From IMG/VR virus record IMGVR_UViG_2648501437_000009: a stretch of DNA of 10,176 nt. One strand, written 5' to 3'. A program made the translations under genes and the position numbers. This document shows, in pieces, positions 25-10,176 of this stretch. This stretch comes from a virus. Taxonomy: Duplodnaviria > Heunggongvirae > Uroviricota > Caudoviricetes. The notes under the pieces were generated by a model that had not been told where the DNA came from, ran no database searches, and worked only from the letters and a program-made list of their open reading frames with translations. Position 1 is the first letter of the stretch. Each line of letters opens with the position of its first letter.

Positions 25-1443
25 ATGATGAACCCTGTTCCATGGCTCCAGATGACAAACATGATCTCATATCAGGGACTTGTTCGCACCTTCCCTAGTG
101 AACTTGCAAAACTGGAAAAGCTAAAGAATCAGTATTCAAAGGAAGAATATAATAATCTTATCGCTCAAATAAATGAGCGTTATAAAGATCCAAAGCAACC
201 AAAGGCGAAAGGTTATTCGGATGATGCTGCCCAACGAATGATTGATCATCTGAATCAACAGAATGCGTTACTAAGTTCACAAGCTGAATTGACCGTTAAA
301 TTAAGTTCCTCTGAACAGGAACTGGTTAAGTGGCGTCAGCAGATTGCCGACCTGGAGTCACGACCGTCATCGAAATTAACCCAGGATCAGAAATCGCTTC
401 TCTTACACCGGGAAGAAATAACCGCGTTGATGGAGAAAAATGTTGCGATTGAAAAAAATAACAGGCTAATCAAGGAATCCGCCGAAATAGCTGCATGGCG
501 TGATTCATTGCAGGCTTCGATTGATAATCGTCAACAGGGGTATGACATTCAGATTGCTGGTTATGGGGTTGGCGATAAAAATCAGCAACGCCAGCAGGAA
601 TTACTGCGGATTGAACGTGAATATAACAATCAGCGTCTGCAACTTGAACGTGACTATGCAGATAAATCCCGTGGAATGTCAAATCATGTTTTTCAGGAGA
701 AAATGCAGGCTCTGAATGATGCTCTGGAACGAGAAAAAGAAATTGTCAGCCAGATAAACGAGCAGCTCGATATTCAGGCAGGAGACTGGATTAGTGGTGC
801 CTCCCAGGGATTCAATAACTGGCTGGATGACACTAAGGATATCGGTGCGCAGATAAAATCAACCACGACTCAGATGTTTGGTGGGATGACCGATGCGCTA
901 GGTGATTTTGTCACGACAGGCAAGGCAAATTTTCGTTCTTTCGCGACTTCCGTGATTTCGGATCTTAGTCGAATAGCATTAAAGGCTTCAATTACTGGGA
1001 TTTTCGACAGCATTAGTAACAGTTCTTCCGGAGGGATTTTAGGAACTATCGGGAGTGCTATTAGTAAATTTATTCCGAATGCAAAGGGCGGTGTTTATGA
1101 GTCTCCGTCATTGAGCACGTATTCGAACGGTATTTATGATTCCCCGCAATTTTTTGCTTTTGCAAAAGGGGCTGGTGTTTTTGGTGAGGCTGGACCGGAA
1201 GCCATTATGCCATTAACACGAACTTCCGATGGTTCTCTTGGTGTCAGAGCTATTAATAGTAAAAGTGGTAATGGAGGCGGAGATATTACCTATGCCCCTG
1301 TATACCAAATCACTATTCAAAATGACGGCCAGAATGGAGAGATTGGCCCTCAGGCAATAAAAGCACTTATGGGGATGGTTGATCAGCGGGTGCAGGGCAA
1401 TCTGTTAAATATGCGACGTGATGGGGGAATGTTAAGTGGCTAA
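25..1443 (+). CDS. Tail tape measure protein, C-terminal ~470 codons (gpH-like); possibly truncated or disrupted at the 5' end
   Basis: ORF 25..1443. N-terminal half is charged, Q/E/K/R-rich and heptad-like (coiled-coil, typical of tape measure proteins); C-terminal half is Gly/Ser-rich, ending ...NDGQNGEIGPQAIKAL...MRRDGGMLSG, which resembles the lambda gpH C-terminus as I recall it. Sits immediately upstream of M-L-K-I-J. In-frame TGA TGA at 16..21 prevents upstream extension in this frame. Confidence 0.8.
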   Translation: MMNPVPWLQMTNMISYQGLVRTFPSELAKLEKLKNQYSKEEYNNLIAQINERYKDPKQPKAKGYSDDAAQRMIDHLNQQNALLSSQAELTVKLSSSEQELVKWRQQIADLESRPSSKLTQDQKSLLLHREEITALMEKNVAIEKNNRLIKESAEIAAWRDSLQASIDNRQQGYDIQIAGYGVGDKNQQRQQELLRIEREYNNQRLQLERDYADKSRGMSNHVFQEKMQALNDALEREKEIVSQINEQLDIQAGDWISGASQGFNNWLDDTKDIGAQIKSTTTQMFGGMTDALGDFVTTGKANFRSFATSVISDLSRIALKASITGIFDSISNSSSGGILGTIGSAISKFIPNAKGGVYESPSLSTYSNGIYDSPQFFAFAKGAGVFGEAGPEAIMPLTRTSDGSLGVRAINSKSGNGGGDITYAPVYQITIQNDGQNGEIGPQAIKALMGMVDQRVQGNLLNMRRDGGMLSG

Positions 1444-1774
1444 TACGGAAGAATTTCACTGGTTACCAGAGGATGGAATGAAAACAGAAAATAAACCATC
1501 GATAAAAACTGTAAGATTTGGCGATGGTTATGAGCAACGAAGTCCAAATGGACTTAATCATTCTCTGCGCGTTTTCACCTGTGATTTCAAAGTTGAGGCG
1601 AATGAACGTGATTCATTTGAAAAATTTTTAGCCCGGCATGAAGGCTATAAATCTTTTTTTTGGCGGCCGCCGGGTATTAACAGAAAAATCAGAGTGGTGT
1701 GTCGAACGTGGTCAGCGACAGAACATATCACCTATACCGATTTTTCGTGTCAGTTTGACGAAGTGGTGATCTGA
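1436..1774 (+). CDS. M: Tail tip protein M (minor tail protein M)
   Basis: ORF 1436..1774 (GTG start overlapping the upstream stop). A likelier start is the in-frame ATG at 1478, preceded by GAGGA at 1468..1472. Contains the VRFGDGYEQR and KSFFWRPP motifs matching the gpM family (recalled lambda M: VRFGDGYSQR, KSFLWTPP). About 100-110 aa, the expected size and position between the tape measure gene and L. Confidence 0.85.
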   Translation: MANTEEFHWLPEDGMKTENKPSIKTVRFGDGYEQRSPNGLNHSLRVFTCDFKVEANERDSFEKFLARHEGYKSFFWRPPGINRKIRVVCRTWSATEHITYTDFSCQFDEVVI

Positions 1775-2472
1775 TGCAGGACATACAACAGGAAACGCTG
1801 AATGAATGCATTCGTGCGGAGCAGTCGGCCAGCGTGGTGCTCTGGGAAATCGACCTGACCGAGGTAGGCGGGGATCGCTACTTTTTCTGCAATGAGCAGA
1901 ACGAAAAAGGAGAGTCTGTCACCTGGCAGAGTCGTCAGTATCAGGCCTATCCCATTCAGGGGAGTGGATTTGAGATGAACGGCAAAGGTGCCAGTGCAAG
2001 GCCAACGCTGAAAGTATCTAATCTACACGGCATGGTCACCGGGATGGTGGAGGATTTGCAGAGTCTGGTCGGCGGAACAGTGGTCCGGCGTAAGGTCTAC
2101 GCTCGTTTTCTGGATGCGGTGAACTTCATTAACGGAAACAGTGAAGCCGATCCGGAGCAGGAGGTGATCAGCCGCTGGTGCATCGAGCAGTGCAGCGAAC
2201 TGAACGCGGTTAGCGCGGCCTTTGTGCTGTCCACGCCGACGGAAACGGATGGTGCCGTTTTCCCGGGGCGTATCATGCTGGCTAATACCTGCACCTGGAC
2301 CTATCGCGGTGATGAGTGCGGTTATCACGGTCCGGCGGTCGCGGATGAATATGACCAGCCAACGTCCGATATCACGAAGGATAAATGCAGCAAATGCCTG
2401 AGTGGCTGTAAGTTTCGCAATAACGTCGGCAACTTTGGCGGCTTCCTTTCCATTAACAAACTTTCGCAGTGA
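1774..2472 (+). CDS. L: Tail tip assembly protein L (Fe-S cluster-binding)
   Basis: ORF 1774..2472, 232 aa. ATG overlaps the M stop (ATGA at 1772..1776). Protein MQDIQQETLNECIRAEQSASVVLWEIDL...CSKCLSGCKFRNNVGNFGGFLSINKLSQ appears near-identical to lambda gpL from memory, including the C-terminal cysteine cluster. Same length as lambda L. Confidence 0.95.
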   Translation: MQDIQQETLNECIRAEQSASVVLWEIDLTEVGGDRYFFCNEQNEKGESVTWQSRQYQAYPIQGSGFEMNGKGASARPTLKVSNLHGMVTGMVEDLQSLVGGTVVRRKVYARFLDAVNFINGNSEADPEQEVISRWCIEQCSELNAVSAAFVLSTPTETDGAVFPGRIMLANTCTWTYRGDECGYHGPAVADEYDQPTSDITKDKCSKCLSGCKFRNNVGNFGGFLSINKLSQ

Positions 2473-3221
2473 ATCCCATGACAGAGACAGAATCAGCGAT
2501 TCTGGCGCACGCCCGGCGATGTGCGCCAGCGGAGTCGTGCGGCTTCGTGGTGAGAACGCCGGAGGGAGAAAGATATTTTCCCTGCGTGAATATCTCCGGT
2601 GAGCCGGAGGCGTATTTCCGGATGTCGCCGGAGGACTGGCTGAGTGCAGAAATGCAGGGTGAGATTGTGGCGCTGGTGCACAGCCATCCCGGTGATCTGC
2701 CCTGGCTGAGTGAGGCCGACCGGCGACTGCAGGTGCAGAGTGATTTGCCGTGGTGGCTGGTCTGCCGGGGGGCGATTCATAAGTTCCGCTGTGTGCCGCA
2801 TCTCACCGGGCGGCGCTTTGAGCACGGGGTGACGGACTGTTACACGCTGTTCCGGGACGCTTACCATCTGGCGGGGATTGAGATGCCGGATTTTCATCGC
2901 GGGGATGACTGGTGGCGTAACGGTCAGAATCTCTATCTGGATAATCTGGAGGCCACGGGGCTGTATCAGGTGCCGTTGTCATCAGCACAACCGGGCGATG
3001 TGCTGTTGTGCTGTTTTGGTTCATCGGTGCCGAATCATGCCGCCATTTACTGTGGTGACGGCGAGCTGCTGCACCATATTCCTGAACAACTGAGCAAACG
3101 AGAGAGGTATACCGACAAATGGCAGCGACGCACACACTCCCTCTGGCGTCACCGGGCATGGCACGCATCTGCCTTTACGGGGATTTACAACGATTTGGCC
3201 GCCGCATCGACCTTCGAGTGA
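2469..3221 (+). CDS. K: Tail tip assembly protein K (JAMM/MPN-like plus NlpC/P60-like domains)
   Basis: ORF 2469..3221 (GTG overlapping the L stop; alternative ATG at 2478 giving MTETESAIL...). Contains a JAMM-type motif HSHPGDLPWLSEAD and a downstream Cys/His region (DCYTLF...HH) typical of NlpC/P60 papain-like folds, the architecture described for lambda gpK. The 3' end overlaps gene I by about 100 nt in a different frame. Confidence 0.88.
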   Translation: MNPMTETESAILAHARRCAPAESCGFVVRTPEGERYFPCVNISGEPEAYFRMSPEDWLSAEMQGEIVALVHSHPGDLPWLSEADRRLQVQSDLPWWLVCRGAIHKFRCVPHLTGRRFEHGVTDCYTLFRDAYHLAGIEMPDFHRGDDWWRNGQNLYLDNLEATGLYQVPLSSAQPGDVLLCCFGSSVPNHAAIYCGDGELLHHIPEQLSKRERYTDKWQRRTHSLWRHRAWHASAFTGIYNDLAAASTFE

Positions 3222-3760
3222 AAACGGGGTCCGAAGCCATCCGGGCGCTGGCCATGCAGATCCCGGCATTTCGTCAGAAACTGAGCGACGGCTGGTACCA
3301 GGTACGCATTGCCGGGCGTGATGCAGGTGAAACCGAATTGTCTGCCCGTCTTAATGAGCCGCTGGAAAATGGTGCCGTGATCCATATCGTGCCGCGTCTG
3401 GCAGGAGCCAAAAGTGGCGGTGTGTTTCAGGCTGTGCTGGGGGCGGCTGTTATGGCGGTTGCTATATGGATGCCGGGGGTAGGAATTATGGCGAGTAATC
3501 TGCTGTTTTCTCTCGGTGCCAGTATGACGCTTGGCGGTGTTGCACAGATGCTGGCCCCTAAACCCAAAACCCCCCGCACACAGACAACGGATAACGGCAA
3601 ACAGAATACCTATTTTTCTTCACTGGATAACATGGTTGCCCAGGGCAATGTTCTGCCGGTTCTGTACGGTGAAATGCGCGTGGGGTCACGCGTGGTTTCT
3701 CAGGAGATCAGCACGGCAGACGAAGGGGATGGTGGTCAGGTTGTGGTGATTGGTCGCTGA
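3119..3760 (+). CDS. I: Tail tip assembly protein I
   Basis: ORF 3119..3760, 213 aa. MAATHTLPLASPGMARICLYGDLQRFGRRIDLRVKTG... followed by a hydrophobic Gly/Ala-rich segment and C-terminal ...NVLPVLYGEMRVGSRVVSQEISTADEGDGGQVVVIGR; matches the gpI family. Positioned between K and J. Confidence 0.9.
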   Translation: MAATHTLPLASPGMARICLYGDLQRFGRRIDLRVKTGSEAIRALAMQIPAFRQKLSDGWYQVRIAGRDAGETELSARLNEPLENGAVIHIVPRLAGAKSGGVFQAVLGAAVMAVAIWMPGVGIMASNLLFSLGASMTLGGVAQMLAPKPKTPRTQTTDNGKQNTYFSSLDNMVAQGNVLPVLYGEMRVGSRVVSQEISTADEGDGGQVVVIGR

Positions 3761-3778
3761 TACAAAATGTTTTATGTG

Positions 3779-3798
3779 AAACCGCCTCCGGGCGGTTT
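3779..3798 (+). promoter_or_regulatory. Perfect 8-bp stem / 4-nt loop hairpin in the I-J intergenic gap (possible weak terminator, attenuator or RNA stability element)
   Basis: AAACCGCC (3779..3786) - TCCG - GGCGGTTT (3791..3798) are exact reverse complements; followed by TATCGTTTAT (T-rich but interrupted), then GGAG at 3809..3812 and the J ATG at 3821. Confidence 0.4.
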
Positions 3799-3820
3799 TA
3801 TCGTTTATGGAGCATGACGA

Positions 3821-4798
3821 ATGGGTAAAGGCAGCAGTAAGGGGCATACCCCGCGCGAAGCGAAGGACAACCTGAAGTCCACGCAGCTGCTGAGTGTGAT
3901 CGATGCCATCAGCGAAGGGCCGGTTGAAGGTCCGGTGGATGGATTAAAAAGCGTGCTGCTGAACAGTACGCCGGTGCTGGACAGTGAGGGGAATACCAAT
4001 ATATCCGGCGTCACGGTGGTGTTCCGGGCAGGTGAGCAGGAGCAGACACCGCCGGAGGGATTTGAATCCTCCGGCTCCGAGACGGTGCTGGGTACGGAAG
4101 TGAAATATGACACGCCGATAACCCGGACCATCACGTCGGCAAACATTGACCGTCTGCGCCTGACCTTCGGTGTGCAGGCACTGGTGGAAACCACCTCAAA
4201 GGGGGACAGGAATCCGTCGGAAGTCCGCCTGCTGGTTCAGATACAGCGTAATGGTGGCTGGGTGACGGAAAAAGACATCACCATTAAGGGCAAAACCACC
4301 TCGCAGTATCTGGCCTCGGTGGTGGTGGATAACCTGCCGCCGCGCCCGTTTAATATCCGGATGCGCAGAATGACGCCGGACAGCACCACAGACCAGCTGC
4401 AGAACAAAACGCTCTGGTCGTCATACACCGAAATCATCGATGTGAAACAGGGCTACCCGAACACGGCACTGGTCGGCGTACAGGTGGATTCGGAGCAGTT
4501 CGGCAGCCAGCAGGTGAGCCGTAATTATCATCTGCGCGGACGCATTCTGCAGGTGCCGTCGAACTACAACCCGCAAAAACGGCACATACAGCGGTATCTG
4601 GGACGGAACGTTAAAACCAGCATACAGCAACAACACGGCCTGGTGTCTGTGGGATATGCTGACCCACCCGCGCTACGGCATGGGGAAACGTCTTGGTGCA
4701 GCGGATGTGGACAAATGGGCGCTGTATGTCATCGGCCAGCACTGCGACCAGTCGGTGCCGGACGGCTCTGGCGGCACGGAGCCGCGCATCACCTGTAA
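3821..4798 (+). CDS. J: J fragment 1 (N-terminal); J-like sequence ends near 4576, rest of the ORF is out-of-frame read-through
   Basis: ORF 3821..4798. After ...LQVPSNYNPQ the translation (KRHIQRYLGRNVKTSIQQQH...) loses J-like character while the +1 frame continues J. Confidence 0.6.
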   Translation: MGKGSSKGHTPREAKDNLKSTQLLSVIDAISEGPVEGPVDGLKSVLLNSTPVLDSEGNTNISGVTVVFRAGEQEQTPPEGFESSGSETVLGTEVKYDTPITRTITSANIDRLRLTFGVQALVETTSKGDRNPSEVRLLVQIQRNGGWVTEKDITIKGKTTSQYLASVVVDNLPPRPFNIRMRRMTPDSTTDQLQNKTLWSSYTEIIDVKQGYPNTALVGVQVDSEQFGSQQVSRNYHLRGRILQVPSNYNPQKRHIQRYLGRNVKTSIQQQHGLVSVGYADPPALRHGETSWCSGCGQMGAVCHRPALRPVGAGRLWRHGAAHHL

Positions 4799-5474
4799 TG
4801 CGTACCTGACCACACAGCGCAAGGCGTGGGATGTGCTCAGTGATTTCTGCTCGGCGATGCGCTGTATGCCGGTATGGAACGGGCAGACGCTGACGTTCGT
4901 GCAGGACCGACCGTCGGATAAGGTGTGGACCTATAACCGCAGTAATGTGGTGATGCCGGATGATGGCGCGCCGTTCCGCTACAGCTTCAGCGCCCTGAAA
5001 GACCGCCATAATGCCGTTGAGGTGAACTGGATTGACCCGAATAACGGCTGGGAGACGGCGACAGAGCTTGTGGAGGATACGCAGGCCATTGCCCGTTACG
5101 GTCGTAACGTCACGAAGATGGATGCCTTTGGCTGTACCAGCCGGGGGCAGGCACACCGCGCCGGGCTGTGGCTGATTAAAACAGAACTGCTGGAAACGCA
5201 GACCGTGGACTTCAGCGTGGGTGCCGAAGGGCTTCGCCATGTACCGGGCGATGTCATTGAAATCTGTGATGATGACTATGCCGGTATCAGCACCGGCGGG
5301 CGCGTGCTGGCGGTAAACAGCCAGACCCGGACGCTGACGCTCGACCGTGAAATCACGCTGCCATCTTCCGGCACCACGCTGATAAGCCTGGTTGACGGGA
5401 AGTGGCAATCCGATCAGCGTGGAGGTTCAGTCCGTCACCGACGGCGTGAAGGTGAAAGTGAGCCGTGTTCCTGA
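4656..5474 (+). CDS. J: J fragment 2 (central); J-like reading frame actually begins near 4581 and ends near 5399
   Basis: ORF 4656..5474 from first ATG ([28 protein letters not shown]...). The same frame is open and J-like upstream from about 4581 (GTYSGIWDGTLKPAYSNNTAWCLWD). After ...LISLVDG the tail ([24 protein letters not shown]) is out-of-frame read-through. Confidence 0.6.
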
Positions 5475-7302
5475 CGGCGTTGCTGAATACAGCGTGTGGG
5501 GGCTGAAGCTGCCGACGTTGCGCCAGCGCCTGTTCCGCTGCGTGAGTATCCGTGAGAACGACGACGGCACGTATGCCATCACCGCCGTGCAGCATGTGCC
5601 GGAAAAAGAGGCCATCGTGGATAACGGGGCGCACTTTGACGGCGACCAGAGCGGCACGGTGAATGGTGTCACGCCGCCAGCGGTGCAGCACCTGACCGCA
5701 GAAGTCACCGCAGACAGCGGGGAATATCAGGTGCTGGCGCGCTGGGACACGCCGAAGGTGGTGAAGGGCGTGAGCTTCATGCTTCGCCTGACCGTGGCAG
5801 CGGACGACGGCAGTGAGCGGCTGGTCAGCACGGCCCGGACGACGGAAACCACATACCGCTTCACGCAACTGGCGCTGGGGAACTACAGGCTGACAGTCCG
5901 GGCGGTAAATGCGTGGGGGCAGCAGGGCGATCCGGCGTCGGTATCGTTCCGGATTGCCGCACCGGCAGCACCGTCGCGGATTGAGCTGACGCCGGGCTAT
6001 TTTCAGATAACCGCAACGCCGCATCTTGCCGTTTATGATCCGACGGTACAGTTTGAGTTCTGGTTCTCGGAAAAGCGGATTACCGATATCAGGCAGGTTG
6101 AAACCACAGCCCGCTATCTTGGTACGGCGCTGTACTGGATAGCTGCCAGTATCAATATCAGGCCGGGCCATGATTATTATTTTTATATCCGCAGTGTGAA
6201 TACCGTTGGCAAATCGGCATTCGTGGAGGCTGTTGGTCAGCCGAGTGATGATGCATCCGGTTATCTGGATTTTTTCAAAGGCGAGATAGGGAAAACCCAT
6301 CTGGCTCATGAGCTGTGGACGCAGATTGATAACGGTCAGCTTGCGCCTGACCTGGCTGAAATCAGGACGTCCATTACGGATGTCAGCAATGAAATCACGC
6401 AGACCGTCAATAAGAAACTGGAAGACCAGAGTGCGGCAATTCAGCAGATACAGAAGGTTCAGGTTGATACAAATAATAACCTGAACAGCATGTGGGCTGT
6501 GAAGCTGCAGCAGATGCAGGACGGACGCCTTTATATCGCGGGTATTGGTGCCGGTATTGAGAACACCCCTGACGGCATGCAGAGTCAGGTGCTGCTGGCG
6601 GCGGACAGGATTGCGATGATTAATCCTGCGAATGGCAACACAAAACCGATGTTTGTTGGTCAGGGCGATCAGATATTCATGAACGAAGTGTTCCTGAAAT
6701 ATCTGACGGCTCCCACCATTACCAGCGGCGGTAATCCTCCGACATTTTCCCTGACACCGGACGGGCGGCTGACGGCGAAAAATGCCGATATCAGCGGTAA
6801 CGTGAATGCGAACTCCGGGACGCTCAATAATGTCACGATTAACCAGAACTGTCGGATTATGGGAAAGCTGTCTGTCAACCAGATTGAAGGCGATATTGTC
6901 AAAACAGTGGGTAAGGCTTTCCCGCGGGACTCCCGGGCACCGGAGCGGTGGCCATCAGGGACCATTACCGTCAGGATTTATGACGATCAGCCGTTTGACC
7001 GGCAGATTGTTATTCCGGCGGTGGCATTCAGCGGCGCTAAACATGAGAGAGAGCATACTGATATTTACTCCTCATGCCGTCTGATAGTGCGGAAAAACGG
7101 TGCTGAAATTTATAACCGTACCGCGCTGGATAATACGCTGATTTACAGTGGCGTTATTGATATGCCTGCCGGTCACGGTCACATGACGCTGGAGTTTTCG
7201 GTATCAGCATGGCTGGTGAATGACTGGTATCCCACAGCAAGTATCAGCGATTTGCTGGTTGTGGTGATGAAGAAAGCCACCGCAGGCATCAGTATCAGTT
7301 GA
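5392..7302 (+). CDS. J: J fragment 3 (C-terminal, includes the presumed receptor-binding region)
   Basis: ORF 5392..7302 (TTG at 5392 is an ORF-caller start; J frame resumes at about 5401 with [26 protein letters not shown]). 636 codons uninterrupted to the stop at 7300..7302. Confidence 0.65.
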
Positions 7303-7321
7303 ATTTTATAACCCAAATACG

Positions 7322-7346
7322 GGCGCCAGAAATGGCGCCTTTTTTA
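7322..7346 (+). terminator. Rho-independent terminator downstream of J
   Basis: GGCGCCA (7322..7328) - GAAA loop - TGGCGCC (7333..7339), a perfect 7-bp GC-rich stem with a GNRA-type tetraloop, followed immediately by TTTTTTATT (7340..7348). Lies 20 nt after the J stop. Confidence 0.8.
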
Positions 7347-7369
7347 TTGCAGAAAAGCGAGAGGTAATT

Positions 7370-7969
7370 ATGCGTAAATTATGTGCTGTTATTCTGTCTG
7401 CAGTAGTCTGGCTGGTCGCCGCTGGTACGCCAGCGAGTGCAGCAGAGCATCAGTCCACACTAAGCGCCGGGTATCTTCAGACCCATACTGATATGCCAGG
7501 CAGCGATGACCTGAAGGGCATTAACGTGAAATACCGTTATGAGTTTACGGACACGCTGGGGCTGATTACGTCATTCAGTTATGCCAATGCTGAAGATGAG
7601 CAAAAAACGCATTACAGCGATACCCGCTGGCATGAAGATTCCGTGCGTAACCGCTGGTTCAGCGTGATGGCGGGGCCGTCTGTGCGCGTGAATGAATGGT
7701 TCAGCGCGTATGCGATGGCGGGTATGGCTTACAGCCGTGTGTCGACTTTCTCCGGGGATTATCTGCACGTAACCGACAACAAGGGGAAAACGCACGATGT
7801 GCTGACCGGAAGTGATGACGGTCGCCACAGCAACACGTCTCTGGCGTGGGGAGCTGGCGTGCAGTTTAACCCGACCGAATCCGTGGCCATTGATATTGCT
7901 TATGAAGGTTCCGGCAGTGGCGACTGGCGTACTGACGGTTTCATCGTGGGTGTCGGTTATAAATTCTGA
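7370..7969 (+). CDS. lom: Lom outer-membrane protein (Ail/Lom/PagC/OmpX family beta-barrel); lysogenic-conversion moron
   Basis: ORF 7370..7969, 199 aa. RBS GAGAGG at about 7357..7362. N-terminal signal peptide MRKLCAVILSAVVWLVAAGTPASA-AEH. C-terminus ...VAIDIAYEGSGSGDWRTDGFIVGVGYKF ends in aromatic F, typical of OM beta-barrels, and matches the lambda Lom C-terminus as I recall it. Position after J matches lambda. Confidence 0.9.
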   Translation: MRKLCAVILSAVVWLVAAGTPASAAEHQSTLSAGYLQTHTDMPGSDDLKGINVKYRYEFTDTLGLITSFSYANAEDEQKTHYSDTRWHEDSVRNRWFSVMAGPSVRVNEWFSAYAMAGMAYSRVSTFSGDYLHVTDNKGKTHDVLTGSDDGRHSNTSLAWGAGVQFNPTESVAIDIAYEGSGSGDWRTDGFIVGVGYKF

Positions 7970-7995
7970 TTAGCCAGGTAACACAGTGTTATGGC

Positions 7996-8022
7996 AGCCC
8001 GCAGATTCTGGCGGGCTTTTTT
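7996..8022 (+). terminator. Rho-independent terminator downstream of lom
   Basis: AGCCCGC (7996..8002) - 8-nt loop - GCGGGCT (8011..8017), followed by a T-run (8017..8022). Lies 27 nt after the lom stop and 12 nt before the stf ATG. Confidence 0.75.
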
Positions 8023-8033
8023 GTGGGGTGAAT

Positions 8034-10176
8034 ATGGCAGTAAAGATTTCAGGTGTACTGAAAGACGGTGCAGGTAAACCGATACAGAACTGCACAATCC
8101 AGCTGAAAGCAAAACGTAACAGCACCACGGTGGTGGTGAACACGGTGGCCTCAGAAAATCCGGATGAAGCCGGGCGTTACAGCATGGACGTTGAGTACGG
8201 TCAGTACAGCGTTATTCTGTTGGTGGAGGGATTCCCGCCGTCACATGCCGGGACCATCACCGTGTATGAAGACTCCCAACCCGGTACGCTGAATGATTTT
8301 CTTGGTGCCATGACGGAGGATGATGCCCGTCCGGAGGCACTGCGCCGTTTTGAACTGATGGTGGAAGAGGTGGCGCGTAACGCGTCCGCAGTGGCACAGA
8401 ACACGGCAGCCGCGAAGAAGTCAGCCAGCGATGCCGGCACATCAGCCCGTGAGGCGGCAACTCATGCAACCGATGCTGCAGGCTCAGCACGTGCCGCCAG
8501 CACGTCAGCCGGACAGGCCGCGTCGTCGGCTCAGTCAGCATCTTCCAGCGCAGGAACGGCATCAACAAAGGCCACTGAAGCATCAAAAAGTGCTGCCGCT
8601 GCAGAGTCTTCAAAAAGCGCGGCTGCCACCAGTGCCGGTGCCGCGTCAACAAGTGCCGGGCAGGCCTCAGCCAGTGCCACCGCCGCCGGAAAATCGGCAG
8701 AAAGCGCCGCCTCGTCCGCTTCAACAGCCACAACGAAGGCTGGCGAAGCCACTGAACAGGCCAGCGCAGCAGCGAGGTCTGCTTCCGCAGCGAAGACATC
8801 TGAGACGAATGCGAAAGCGTCGGAAACCCGTGCAGAATCCTCAAAAACGGCAGCCGCATCGTCCGCCAGTTCGGCGGCGTCATCGGCATCATCTGCGTCT
8901 GCTTCAAAAGATGAGGCGACCAGACAGGCGTCAGCAGCAAAGGGCAGCGCCACGACGGCATCCACGAAGGCGACAGAGGCAGCTGGCAGTGCGACGGCGG
9001 CAGCTCAGAGCAAAAGTACGGCGGAATCCGCGGCAACGCGCGCCGAGACAGCGGCAAAACGGGCAGAGGATATTGCATCCGCCGTGGCGCTTGAGGATGC
9101 AAGTACGACGAAAAAGGGGATAGTACAGCTCAGCAGTGCGACCAACAGCACTTCCGAGTCACTGGCGGCAACGCCAAAGGCAGTAAAAGCAGCCAATGAC
9201 AATGCTGAGAAACGTCTGCAGAAAGATCAGAACGGTGCGGATATCCCTGGCAAAGACACCTTTACGAAAAATATTGGTGCCTGCCGTGCCTTCGGTGGGT
9301 CAGTAAGCACAACAACAGGAAACTGGACGACTGCACAGTTTATCGAGTGGCTGGATTCTCAGGGAGCATTTAACCATCCATACTGGATGTGCAAGGGTTC
9401 CTGGTCTTATGGCAATAATAAAATCATTACTGATACTGGCTGCGGTAATATTCATCTCGCCGGAGCTGTCATTGAAGTAATGGGGATAAAGTCAGCGATG
9501 ACGATCCGCATTACCACACCGACCACCTCCACTGGTGGTGGAACAACTAACGCCCAGTTTACCTATATTAATCACGGAACAGATTATTCACCTGGCTGGC
9601 GAAGGGACTATAACTCCAGAAATAAGCCAACGGCATCAGAGATCGGGGCGTTACCGTCAGGTGGAACAGCAGTATCATCAGTTAATTTGTCTTCAAAAGG
9701 TCGGGTAACCGCGCTGACAGACAATACGCAGGGGGCAACAGGTCTTGAGTTATACGAGGTGTATAACAACGGATATCCAACAGCGTATGGAAATATCATT
9801 CACCTGAAAGGGATGACAGCCGTTGGCGAAGGTGAGTTACTCATCGGCTGGAGTGGTACAAGCGGTGCTCATGCTCCGGCATTTATTCGTTCACGACGGG
9901 ATACGACCGACGCAAACTGGTCGCCGTGGGCGCAGCTTTACACCTCGGCTCATCCTCCTGCAGAGTTTTATCCAGTCGGTGCACCAATCCCGTGGCCATC
10001 AGATACCGTTCCGTCTGGTTATGCCCTGATGCAGGGGCAGACTTTTGACAAATCTGCTTACCCGAAACTTGCAGTTGCTTATCCGTCAGGCGTTATTCCT
10101 GATATGCGTGGCTGGACGATTAAGGGCAAGCCCGGCAGTGGTCGTGCCGTATTGTCTCAGGAACAGGACGGCATTA
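8034..10176 (+). CDS. stf: Side tail fibre protein Stf (partial, 3' end beyond window)
   Basis: ATG at 8034 with GGGGTG upstream. I translated the frame by hand: open to the window end with no stop (missing from the ORF track because there is no stop in-window). N-terminus [60 protein letters not shown] matches the lambda Stf N-terminus from memory. Followed by a long Ala/Ser-rich tract, the [26 protein letters not shown] motif, and a distal [37 protein letters not shown] motif typical of enterobacterial phage tail-fibre C-terminal regions. Confidence 0.9.
8380..9080 (+). repeat. Degenerate Ala/Ser/Thr-rich low-complexity repeat tract within stf (fibre shaft)
   Basis: About 230 codons dominated by A, S, T, K, E in recurring short units (e.g. 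SAxSAxxASxSA, [21 protein letters not shown]). GC-rich and stop-poor in several frames on both strands, which generates the long overlapping shadow ORFs 8257..9102(-), 8531..8965(-) and 8431..9123(+). Confidence 0.6.

Follow-up and report, generated by a model that had tools for sequence, protein, structure and literature searches.

The lom gene between J and stf of a lambda-like prophage, its flanking intrinsic terminators and the possible roles of its product

The gene located between J and stf in the DNA analysed here is best explained as the lom gene of a lambda-like prophage. It occupies the standard J-lom-stf slot of the late operon, is insulated by two terminators, and its product would alter the cell surface; a probability of roughly 85% is assigned to this reading. 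The window, i.e., the whole stretch of 10,176 bases, carries a row of tail genes of the lambda type, namely the end of H, followed by M, L, K, I, J, lom and stf (Table 1). J extends from 3821 to 7302, with its stop codon at 7300-7302, and the open reading frame 5392-7302 contains J domains, including Ig_GpJ_C. As stf starts at 8034, the placement of lom between these two genes in an earlier note on this DNA was correct. The stf reading frame begins with a prophage tail-fibre N-terminal domain (Pfam PF08400 phage_tail_N, residues 1-134) and its product has a Collar domain too. In lambda, Lom (NP_040601; PDB 9wso) belongs to the same Pfam family and is encoded in the same slot.

The J-lom-stf layout is already known, since 4864 of 5426 complete E. 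coli genomes contain it. In these genomes, the 951 bases from the end of J to the start of stf were matched at a median of two places and at up to 14, and the annotation at the matching sites was always J, an Ail/Lom family protein and a tail fibre. Indeed, the NCBI pipeline annotates the layout routinely on thousands of genomes. The same 951 bases matched 228 phage records, and their nearest match was E. coli A30 (99.3%). At least 596 IMG/VR stretches are further examples. Lambdoid prophages and Stx phages of E. coli (e.g., VT1-Sakai, 2G7b, A30, SE11) share 93-99% DNA identity with the window from the end of J to the start of stf and are annotated alike. Their lom genes show only allelic differences, which are located in loops L1 and L2 and in the signal peptide. 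At the protein level, Lom has 97% identity with a cluster of 2821 members and 94% with another of 24,859 members. There is thus nothing new in the lom locus itself, which is a matter of routine annotation and is of little consequence as described.

Table 1. Coordinates of the features in and around lom, numbered from the first base of the window
Feature	Position	Strand	Details
J 3' end, C-terminal receptor-binding domain (Ig_GpJ_C)	6907..7302	+	Pfam PF12421, residues 506-636 of ORF 5392-7302
Upstream intrinsic terminator (predicted)	7321..7345	+	8-pair stem 7321-7328 / 7333-7340, loop GAAA, T-run 7340-7345
Shine-Dalgarno GAGAGG	7357..7362	+	Read from sequence; 7 nt 5' of the lom ATG
lom CDS, 199 aa, Ail/Lom family 8-stranded outer-membrane barrel	7370..7969	+	Pfam, PHROG, NCBIfam, PDB, AlphaFold2
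Predicted signal peptide	7370..7441	+	MRK, 17-residue hydrophobic core, ASA then AE
Variable region: L1 (aa 36-50) and strand 3 tip with L2 (aa 72-82)	7475..7615	+	Entropy hot spots
Conserved lom 3' end: strand 7, loop L4, strand 8, terminal Phe	7842..7969	+	Recurrent recombination junction
Downstream intrinsic terminator (predicted)	7996..8022	+	Stem 7996-8002 / 8011-8017, 8-nt loop, T-run 8017-8022
stf (side tail fibre)	8034..10176, open to window end	+	714 codons without stop

The membership of the product in the Ail/Lom family is secure because of its Pfam and PHROG matches, the sequence and Foldseek matches in the PDB, an eight-strand model, the signal peptide and the beta-signal. The Pfam model PF06316 Ail_Lom covers residues 1-199 of 199 with a score of 427.2 bits (cut-off 23; E 1e-128). 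A match to PHROG 108 "Lom outer membrane protein" was also obtained (E 1.4e-107). The NCBIfam models for Rck and OmpX also match, with scores under their cut-offs. In a sequence search against the PDB, lambda Lom was the best match (9wso chain C, E 5e-49), and OmpX and Ail followed at about 1e-19. The alignment to Lom, Ail and OmpX that had been proposed as a check agrees with the assignment. The AlphaFold2 model, computed with 25 homologues, consists of an N-terminal helix (residues 2-19) and eight strands, in line with the barrel topology expected beforehand, at a moderate confidence (mean pLDDT 64; 70-83 over residues 60-170 and below 50 over residues 19-51). A Foldseek search with this model against PDB entries up to April 2026 returned OmpX (1qj9) and Ail (3qrc/3qra) at the top (E 1e-9 to 5e-9), and 9wso was not among the matches. 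Cleavage of the signal peptide would occur after Ala24; in the PDB sequence alignment, residue 3 of mature OmpX pairs with residue 29 of Lom. The C-terminus reads FIVGVGYKF, and its terminal Phe, constant in 25 aligned homologues, is that of an aromatic beta-signal. The description of a single Ail/Lom-family gene with a signal peptide and a barrel is thus in agreement with the Pfam score, the model and the sequence features.

Ail of Yersinia, OmpX of E. coli, and Rck and PagC of Salmonella share the family and the fold of Lom at about 25-29% identity. The strands and loops of Lom are longer (199 aa against 148-157 aa for the mature proteins of the Ail/OmpX type). Unlike lom, these genes are not part of phage tail operons; ompX and ail belong to the chromosome and rck to a plasmid.

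Both hairpins flanking lom seem, from their sequence, to be genuine intrinsic terminators of the + strand. The upstream stem contains six GC pairs among eight and has a 4-nt loop (dG -15.7 kcal/mol, z -4.1, a value not reached in any of 200 shuffles). In the downstream stem, six of the seven pairs are GC (dG -13.9 kcal/mol, z -2.15, equalled in 6 of 200 shuffles). The number of terminators alone proves nothing, since a scan with loose criteria found eight terminator-like sites where 9.2 were expected from shuffles, i.e., a raw count without enrichment. Under strict criteria, set after the data had been seen (seven or more stem pairs, five or more of them GC, and a T5 tail), exactly two sites were found over the two strands of the window taken together, and both flank lom. 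By chance, 0.04 such sites would be expected in a dinucleotide-shuffled sequence, and two or more did not turn up in any of 100 shuffles. These two sites, at 7321-7345 and 7996-8022, correspond to the hairpins reported earlier at 7322..7346 and 7996..8022. In each case, a GC-rich stem is directly followed by six T residues, on the + strand only, as the reverse complements are without a T-run.

The upstream hairpin is conserved as a structure. A hairpin with a T-run stands between J and lom in all of the 80 IMG/VR loci of the same class and in two other classes, including lambda, where it lies at the same place with a different sequence. Stem variants include GGGCGCC/GGCGCC, GGGCGTC/GACGCC and GGGCACC/GGTGCC, and the class with a 207-aa Lom has GGGCACCT/AGGTGCC. 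Compensatory double changes occur across the alleles (G-C to A-U, C-G to U-A and A-U to U-A). Among 12 distinct spacers, three of the eight pairs are changed on both sides and 92.7% of the cells are paired, the unpaired ones coming mostly from the lambda row, which MAFFT set out of register. In a control with slid partners, 37-62% were paired, and the covariation score exceeded that of 500 out of 500 shuffles. As the sequence of the stem varies while its pairing is kept through double changes, the pattern points to selection on RNA structure and not on DNA sequence identity.

The downstream terminator is nearly identical in lambda. Its outer stem AGCCCGC/GCGGGCT (7 pairs) and the T-run are constant in lambda and in both other classes. 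The inner stem and the loop vary across classes, so covariation evidence is scant there, and the loop variant of the window, AGATTCTG, is the rarer one. It could be argued that the hairpins are RNA-stability or processing elements, or conserved boundaries of recombination modules, instead of terminators. The downstream spacer is indeed 95% identical to lambda while lom diverges, and a recurrent recombination junction lies just upstream, at about 7842-7883. Nevertheless, the canonical arrangement of stem and T6 on the coding strand only, as well as the pairing kept in the upstream stem, make this explanation very improbable.

As for other elements in the spacers, the Shine-Dalgarno motif is constant in the 12 distinct aligned J-lom spacers, apart from one M-class variant with AAGAGG. 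An Rfam scan of 6800-8500 with E values up to 1 gave no known RNA family, only two sub-threshold chance matches (a eukaryotic lncRNA, and Trp_leader with 22.7 bits against a gathering score of 41). The small RNA 24B_1, 20 nt long and reported between lom and the next gene in the Stx phage Phi24B, was considered and judged irrelevant to the window. It lies on the opposite strand in a different lom context, and a search of the window with up to 3 mismatches did not find the promoter motif predicted for it. Its authors also reported it to be missing from the analogous lambda region.

By inference from lambda biology, the two terminators might act differently in the two phases of the phage life. 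During lytic growth, RNA polymerase modified by Q at pR' would pass both terminators, and lom would be strongly expressed on a joint transcript with J and stf. Once the prophage is repressed, stray transcripts from J would be halted by the upstream terminator, and lom transcripts by the downstream one before stf. With both sides blocked in the prophage, lom would therefore be an insulated unit, expressed at most weakly. Any promoter for such weak expression would have to overlap or precede the upstream hairpin, because the 23-24 nt between the upstream T-run and the lom ATG, six of which form the Shine-Dalgarno motif, are too short. The protein itself would be exported by Sec and inserted into the outer membrane by BAM, where its long variable loops could alter the cell surface.

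The earlier note saw in the locus a classic moron layout. In its stronger form, this reading makes lom an autonomous virulence gene, acquired as a cassette, with its own promoter and expressed mainly from the repressed prophage, where it would serve adhesion or serum resistance. This reading is possible but doubtful. Of the moron criteria (Juhala et al. 2000; Cumby et al. 2012), a terminator of its own downstream of the gene is present in all allele classes (stem 7996-8017 and T-run). The upstream terminator, however, is no element of the classic promoter-gene-terminator layout. A promoter, moreover, was not detected, either by consensus or by relaxed scan. The sigma-70 consensus scan, a type of scan that can miss real promoters, gave none near lom, and the relaxed scan gave nothing credible, its single 8-of-12 match being at 7038, inside J and about 330 nt upstream. 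The upstream terminator appears to be real and under structural selection. A moron presupposes a promoter, but none can be seen, and the space downstream of that terminator is too small for one.

Published expression data bear on the same point. The literature counts lambda lom among the moron-type genes that are active in lysogens (PMC3594210, PMC7067206, PMC1151598), and its transcription in lysogens is reported in PMC1151598 and PMC7067206, which favours the autonomous reading. In a microarray study, lom was undetected in the lysogen (PMC2147009). According to the literature, little is known about the lom promoter. A 2025 preprint states, citing Liu 2013, that lom expression climbs strongly late in infection (bioRxiv 10.1101/2025.02.28.640651).

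The independent acquisition claimed for the unit is not borne out by base composition, and the comparison of loci gives a mixed picture. The differing base composition expected of a moron is not seen in lom (GC 53.7%, against 51.0% in the last 900 nt of J and 55.2% in the first 400 nt of stf; GC3 0.575, 0.590 and 0.602, respectively). No clean J/stf junction without lom was found among 80 loci with the same stf N-terminus, and lom was present in 66-70 of the 71 loci that could be assessed, i.e., it is nearly fixed beside the stf type of the window. Candidates for an empty site were rejected: three (L201, L229, L240) have a 78-nt deletion inside lom, one (L177) is a truncation and in one (L235) the gene is swapped for an IS200-type transposase region. 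More in favour of an acquired cassette, J is followed by stf without lom in HK97, with flanks unrelated to those of the window. In HK022, the slot after J holds cor, annotated as a moron and phage-exclusion gene.

The comparison with lambda locates the boundaries of the variable unit. Over I and the initial 2500 bases of J, the window is 95% identical to lambda DNA. Similarity is lost from about 6320 and is back at 7842, inside lom, from where 86% identity continues into stf. In the class with the 207-aa protein, similarity to the window resumes at 7883, hence the recombination junction recurs in the lom 3' end. The J-lom spacer measures 61 nt in lambda and 67 nt in the window, and the lom-stf spacer 64 nt in both. 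Lambda and the window share a single conserved block that comprises the lom 3' end, the terminator and the stf 5' end. On its downstream side, the variable unit therefore ends inside lom and not at the terminators, which also speaks against an autonomous moron cassette.

The same pattern is seen in the protein, which is 45% identical to lambda Lom overall (199 aa in the window and 206 aa in lambda). Residues 1 to about 157 have about 36% identity, while identity rises to about 81% over the last 42 residues and is complete over the last 27, which include the surface loop L4 (GSGSGDWRTDG). Loop L1 is longer by 7-8 residues in lambda. It had been proposed that the central, predicted surface-loop part differs from lambda Lom and the C-terminal strands are conserved. 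The conservation of the C-terminal end holds, but the divergence covers the whole first part and includes the strands.

Within the class, variability was measured on 111 distinct Lom proteins of 199 aa. It is concentrated in the signal peptide, in L1 and in the tip of strand 3 with L2. At L1 and L2, not only dN but also dS is raised, with dS values of 0.63-0.78 compared to 0.06-0.26 elsewhere. Because both rates are raised, these segments are regarded as imported, i.e., as allelic cassettes. The dN/dS ratio of lom is 0.06-0.27 throughout its own class and thus reveals purifying selection.

This selection bears on whether lom could be an inert remnant, without current function in a decaying prophage. 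J is broken into three frames by two +1 insertions, and numerous in-frame deletion variants of lom are found in databases, as might be expected of decay. However, the lom reading frame is intact and full length, in addition to the purifying selection and the close identity to the large protein cluster given above. The insertions in J are peculiar to the present draft contig (0 of about 240 other loci); they may be assembly errors, or the prophage may be defective. An inert remnant is accordingly a highly unlikely explanation.

The function of Lom has been discussed in terms of adhesion and, more recently, of phage exclusion. One paper names lambda Lom as a moron product and credits it with better adhesion to epithelial cells (PMC3594210), a claim that goes back to Vica Pacheco 1997. 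The earlier attribution of adhesion and serum resistance to Lom-family proteins is therefore supported by a citation in its first half, but the evidence for serum resistance concerns bor, Ail and Rck and not Lom, a further point against a virulence moron. When overexpressed, lambda Lom strongly blocked lambda-vir and not T7 (bioRxiv 10.1101/2025.02.28.640651). The authors of this preprint proposed that Lom acts in exclusion or in avoiding wasteful adsorption late in infection. In addition, the PDB entry 9wso contains lambda Lom together with the maltoporin LamB, the receptor of J, LamB being present in the construct that was also used for 8xcj, a lambda tail-LamB entry. J and Stf were ruled out as the partner of Lom in 9wso, the partner chain of the entry being LamB. 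A literature search found no paper describing 9wso.

Comparable systems are known in other phages. Cor (HK022, phi80, N15) and Llp (T5) are exclusion proteins encoded, like Lom, beside a receptor-binding tail gene. These envelope proteins target the receptor that their own phage uses, and lambda Lom appears to be alike in logic; in contrast to Lom, they are small lipoproteins, unrelated to it and not barrels. In Drexlerviridae, receptor specificity correlates with the locus that follows gpJ, where exclusion factors are encoded as well (bioRxiv 10.64898/2026.04.02.716166). For lambda Lom, blocking the adsorption of its own kind via the receptor of J seems better supported than the adhesion claim. 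The entry with LamB and the block of lambda-vir suggest that the label "virulence moron" may be secondary to phage exclusion. For lambda, recent work has already raised a role of Lom in receptor-directed exclusion, which may extend to the window allele. As the identity between the two proteins is only 45%, the lambda data apply to this allele by analogy only.

These data lead to the possibility that Lom binds or masks the receptor of the adjacent J, so that lom alleles travel with J alleles. Such a receptor-matched exclusion cassette would be compatible with lom being an insulated late gene of the standard slot, and it can be put forward only tentatively. The data on lambda Lom and LamB, the selective block of lambda-vir, cor in the HK022 slot and the Drexlerviridae locus all favour it. 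So does the divergence from lambda, which forms one block made of the C-terminal part of J and the first three quarters of lom. On the other hand, none of the PADLOC defence models matches Lom.

Allele matching was assessed in 121 loci, which had been picked by similarity to the queries, with lambda-type loci that are all lambda itself and an almost invariant Stf N-terminus. In this sample, the lom class is correlated most with the C-terminal J cluster, defined on the last 150 aa (r = 0.51), less with the preceding 150 aa of J (r = 0.25) and hardly with the Stf N-terminus (r = 0.06). A decay of correlation with distance is also the expectation under linkage. The lom class of the window is found with six C-terminal clusters of J, and one J cluster is found with two lom classes. 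In two loci (L034 and L076), the J tip alone is swapped, over stretches corresponding to window positions 6908-7143 and 7015-7231, and lom is unchanged. The partial coupling of lom and J matches what plain linkage predicts and is inseparable from it.

A further elaboration is speculative and, on the evidence at hand, improbable. It supposes that Lom alleles are receptor-specific adsorption blockers matched to the J tip, that the window allele, which stands beside a J tip unlike that of lambda, masks a receptor other than LamB, that the terminators give a two-level programme, and that the variable unit consists of the J tip and the first three quarters of lom. If it were true, lom would be expressed in traces in the lysogen and in a late lytic burst that keeps the progeny off infected cells, and the conserved lom 3' end would mark the limit of the variable unit. 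The nearest solved relative of the C-terminal domain of J in the window is "A8 gpJ 713" (9wca), lambda J being second. The many natural combinations of J and lom alleles make an exclusion role testable.

The downstream terminator that separates lom from stf is common. It is not universal, since it is lacking from a small share of lom genes that are similar in other respects. In 12 IMG/VR loci carrying the same lom class as the window, the gene is followed by a different sequence (TGACAACAGACGCCGATTTATC...), with neither the terminator nor an stf-type start. A second, weaker hairpin lies between lom and the terminator (see table). Its outer four pairs are restricted to the window's variant, which has G at position 7994. 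Because most relatives, lambda included, have A at this position, structural conservation of the hairpin is unlikely.

Moreover, a recurrent recombination junction was located within the 3' end of lom, at window 7842-7883. Similarity resumes at 7842 in the comparison to lambda and at 7883 in that to the 207-aa allele class. As both points are inside the gene, the last ~30-40 lom codons, the terminator and the 5' end of stf form one conserved block.

Features located in the window
Feature	Position	Strand	Details
Second, weaker hairpin	7973-7995		after the stop codon of lom, ahead of the terminator; GCCAGGTAACACAGTGTTATGGC
First J insertion site	~4585		relative to lambda J; window CGGCACATAC vs CGGCAATAC
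Second J insertion site	5397-5399		relative to lambda J; window GACGGGAAG vs GACGGAAG
Spurious ORF in stf	8257-9102	-	281 aa
Spurious ORF in stf	8431-9123	+	230 aa

Many lom alleles in the databases carry in-frame deletions of 14-27 residues, by which whole barrel strands are lost. Such deletions are found in the Lom proteins P0043, P0057, P0064, P0081, P0096, P0102 and P0104, and several are flanked by short direct repeats (RW-FS...EW-FS, MAG...MAG). In three IMG/VR loci (L201, L229 and L240), the 78 nt corresponding to window 7846-7924 are missing. The alleles with deletions are probably decaying copies. Insertion-sequence transposases were also observed next to the lom cassette in two of the compared IMG/VR loci, L235 and L074. 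In L235, an IS200-type transposase region (1871-2500) takes the place of everything upstream of stf, and similarity to the window restarts at window 8017, the first base of the terminator T-run. In L074, a transposase ORF is located upstream of lom, where J would be expected.

Regarding the protein itself, queries with window 7370-7966 and with the maltoporin LamB both found PDB 9wso, a solved structure entry that holds two chains of lambda Lom together with LamB. LamB is the receptor to which lambda J binds. In the literature searched, no publication on this entry was found.

The J gene (3821-7302) is spread over three reading frames because, compared with lambda J, it has one extra base at each of two sites. 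Both insertions are absent from all of the ~240 related loci checked; uninterrupted versions were found at the two sites in 65 and 61 loci, respectively, and J is intact in E. coli A30, the closest matching genome. Either the split J is a pseudogene private to this sequence, or the draft contig is in error.

The central part of stf (window 8300-9200) is Ala/Ser/Thr-rich and of low complexity, with a GC content of 62-64%. It gives rise to long ORFs that are spurious, both on the opposite strand and in the remaining frames; two examples are listed in the table. In lambda, an opposite-strand 'orf206b' is annotated at the equivalent place.

The window is a complete contig (10,176 bp), and its ends, at 1 and 10176, fall inside H and stf. 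Such breaks are typical of assembly collapse over several similar lambdoid prophages, so two or more copies may have been merged into the window sequence as a consensus. Furthermore, base composition shifts sharply at the M/L junction (window 25-1774 vs 1774-7302). GC content is 41-44% in the H fragment and M (GC3 35-39%) but 55-59% in L, K, I and J (GC3 57-67%). This step points to a boundary between mosaic segments within the tail operon.
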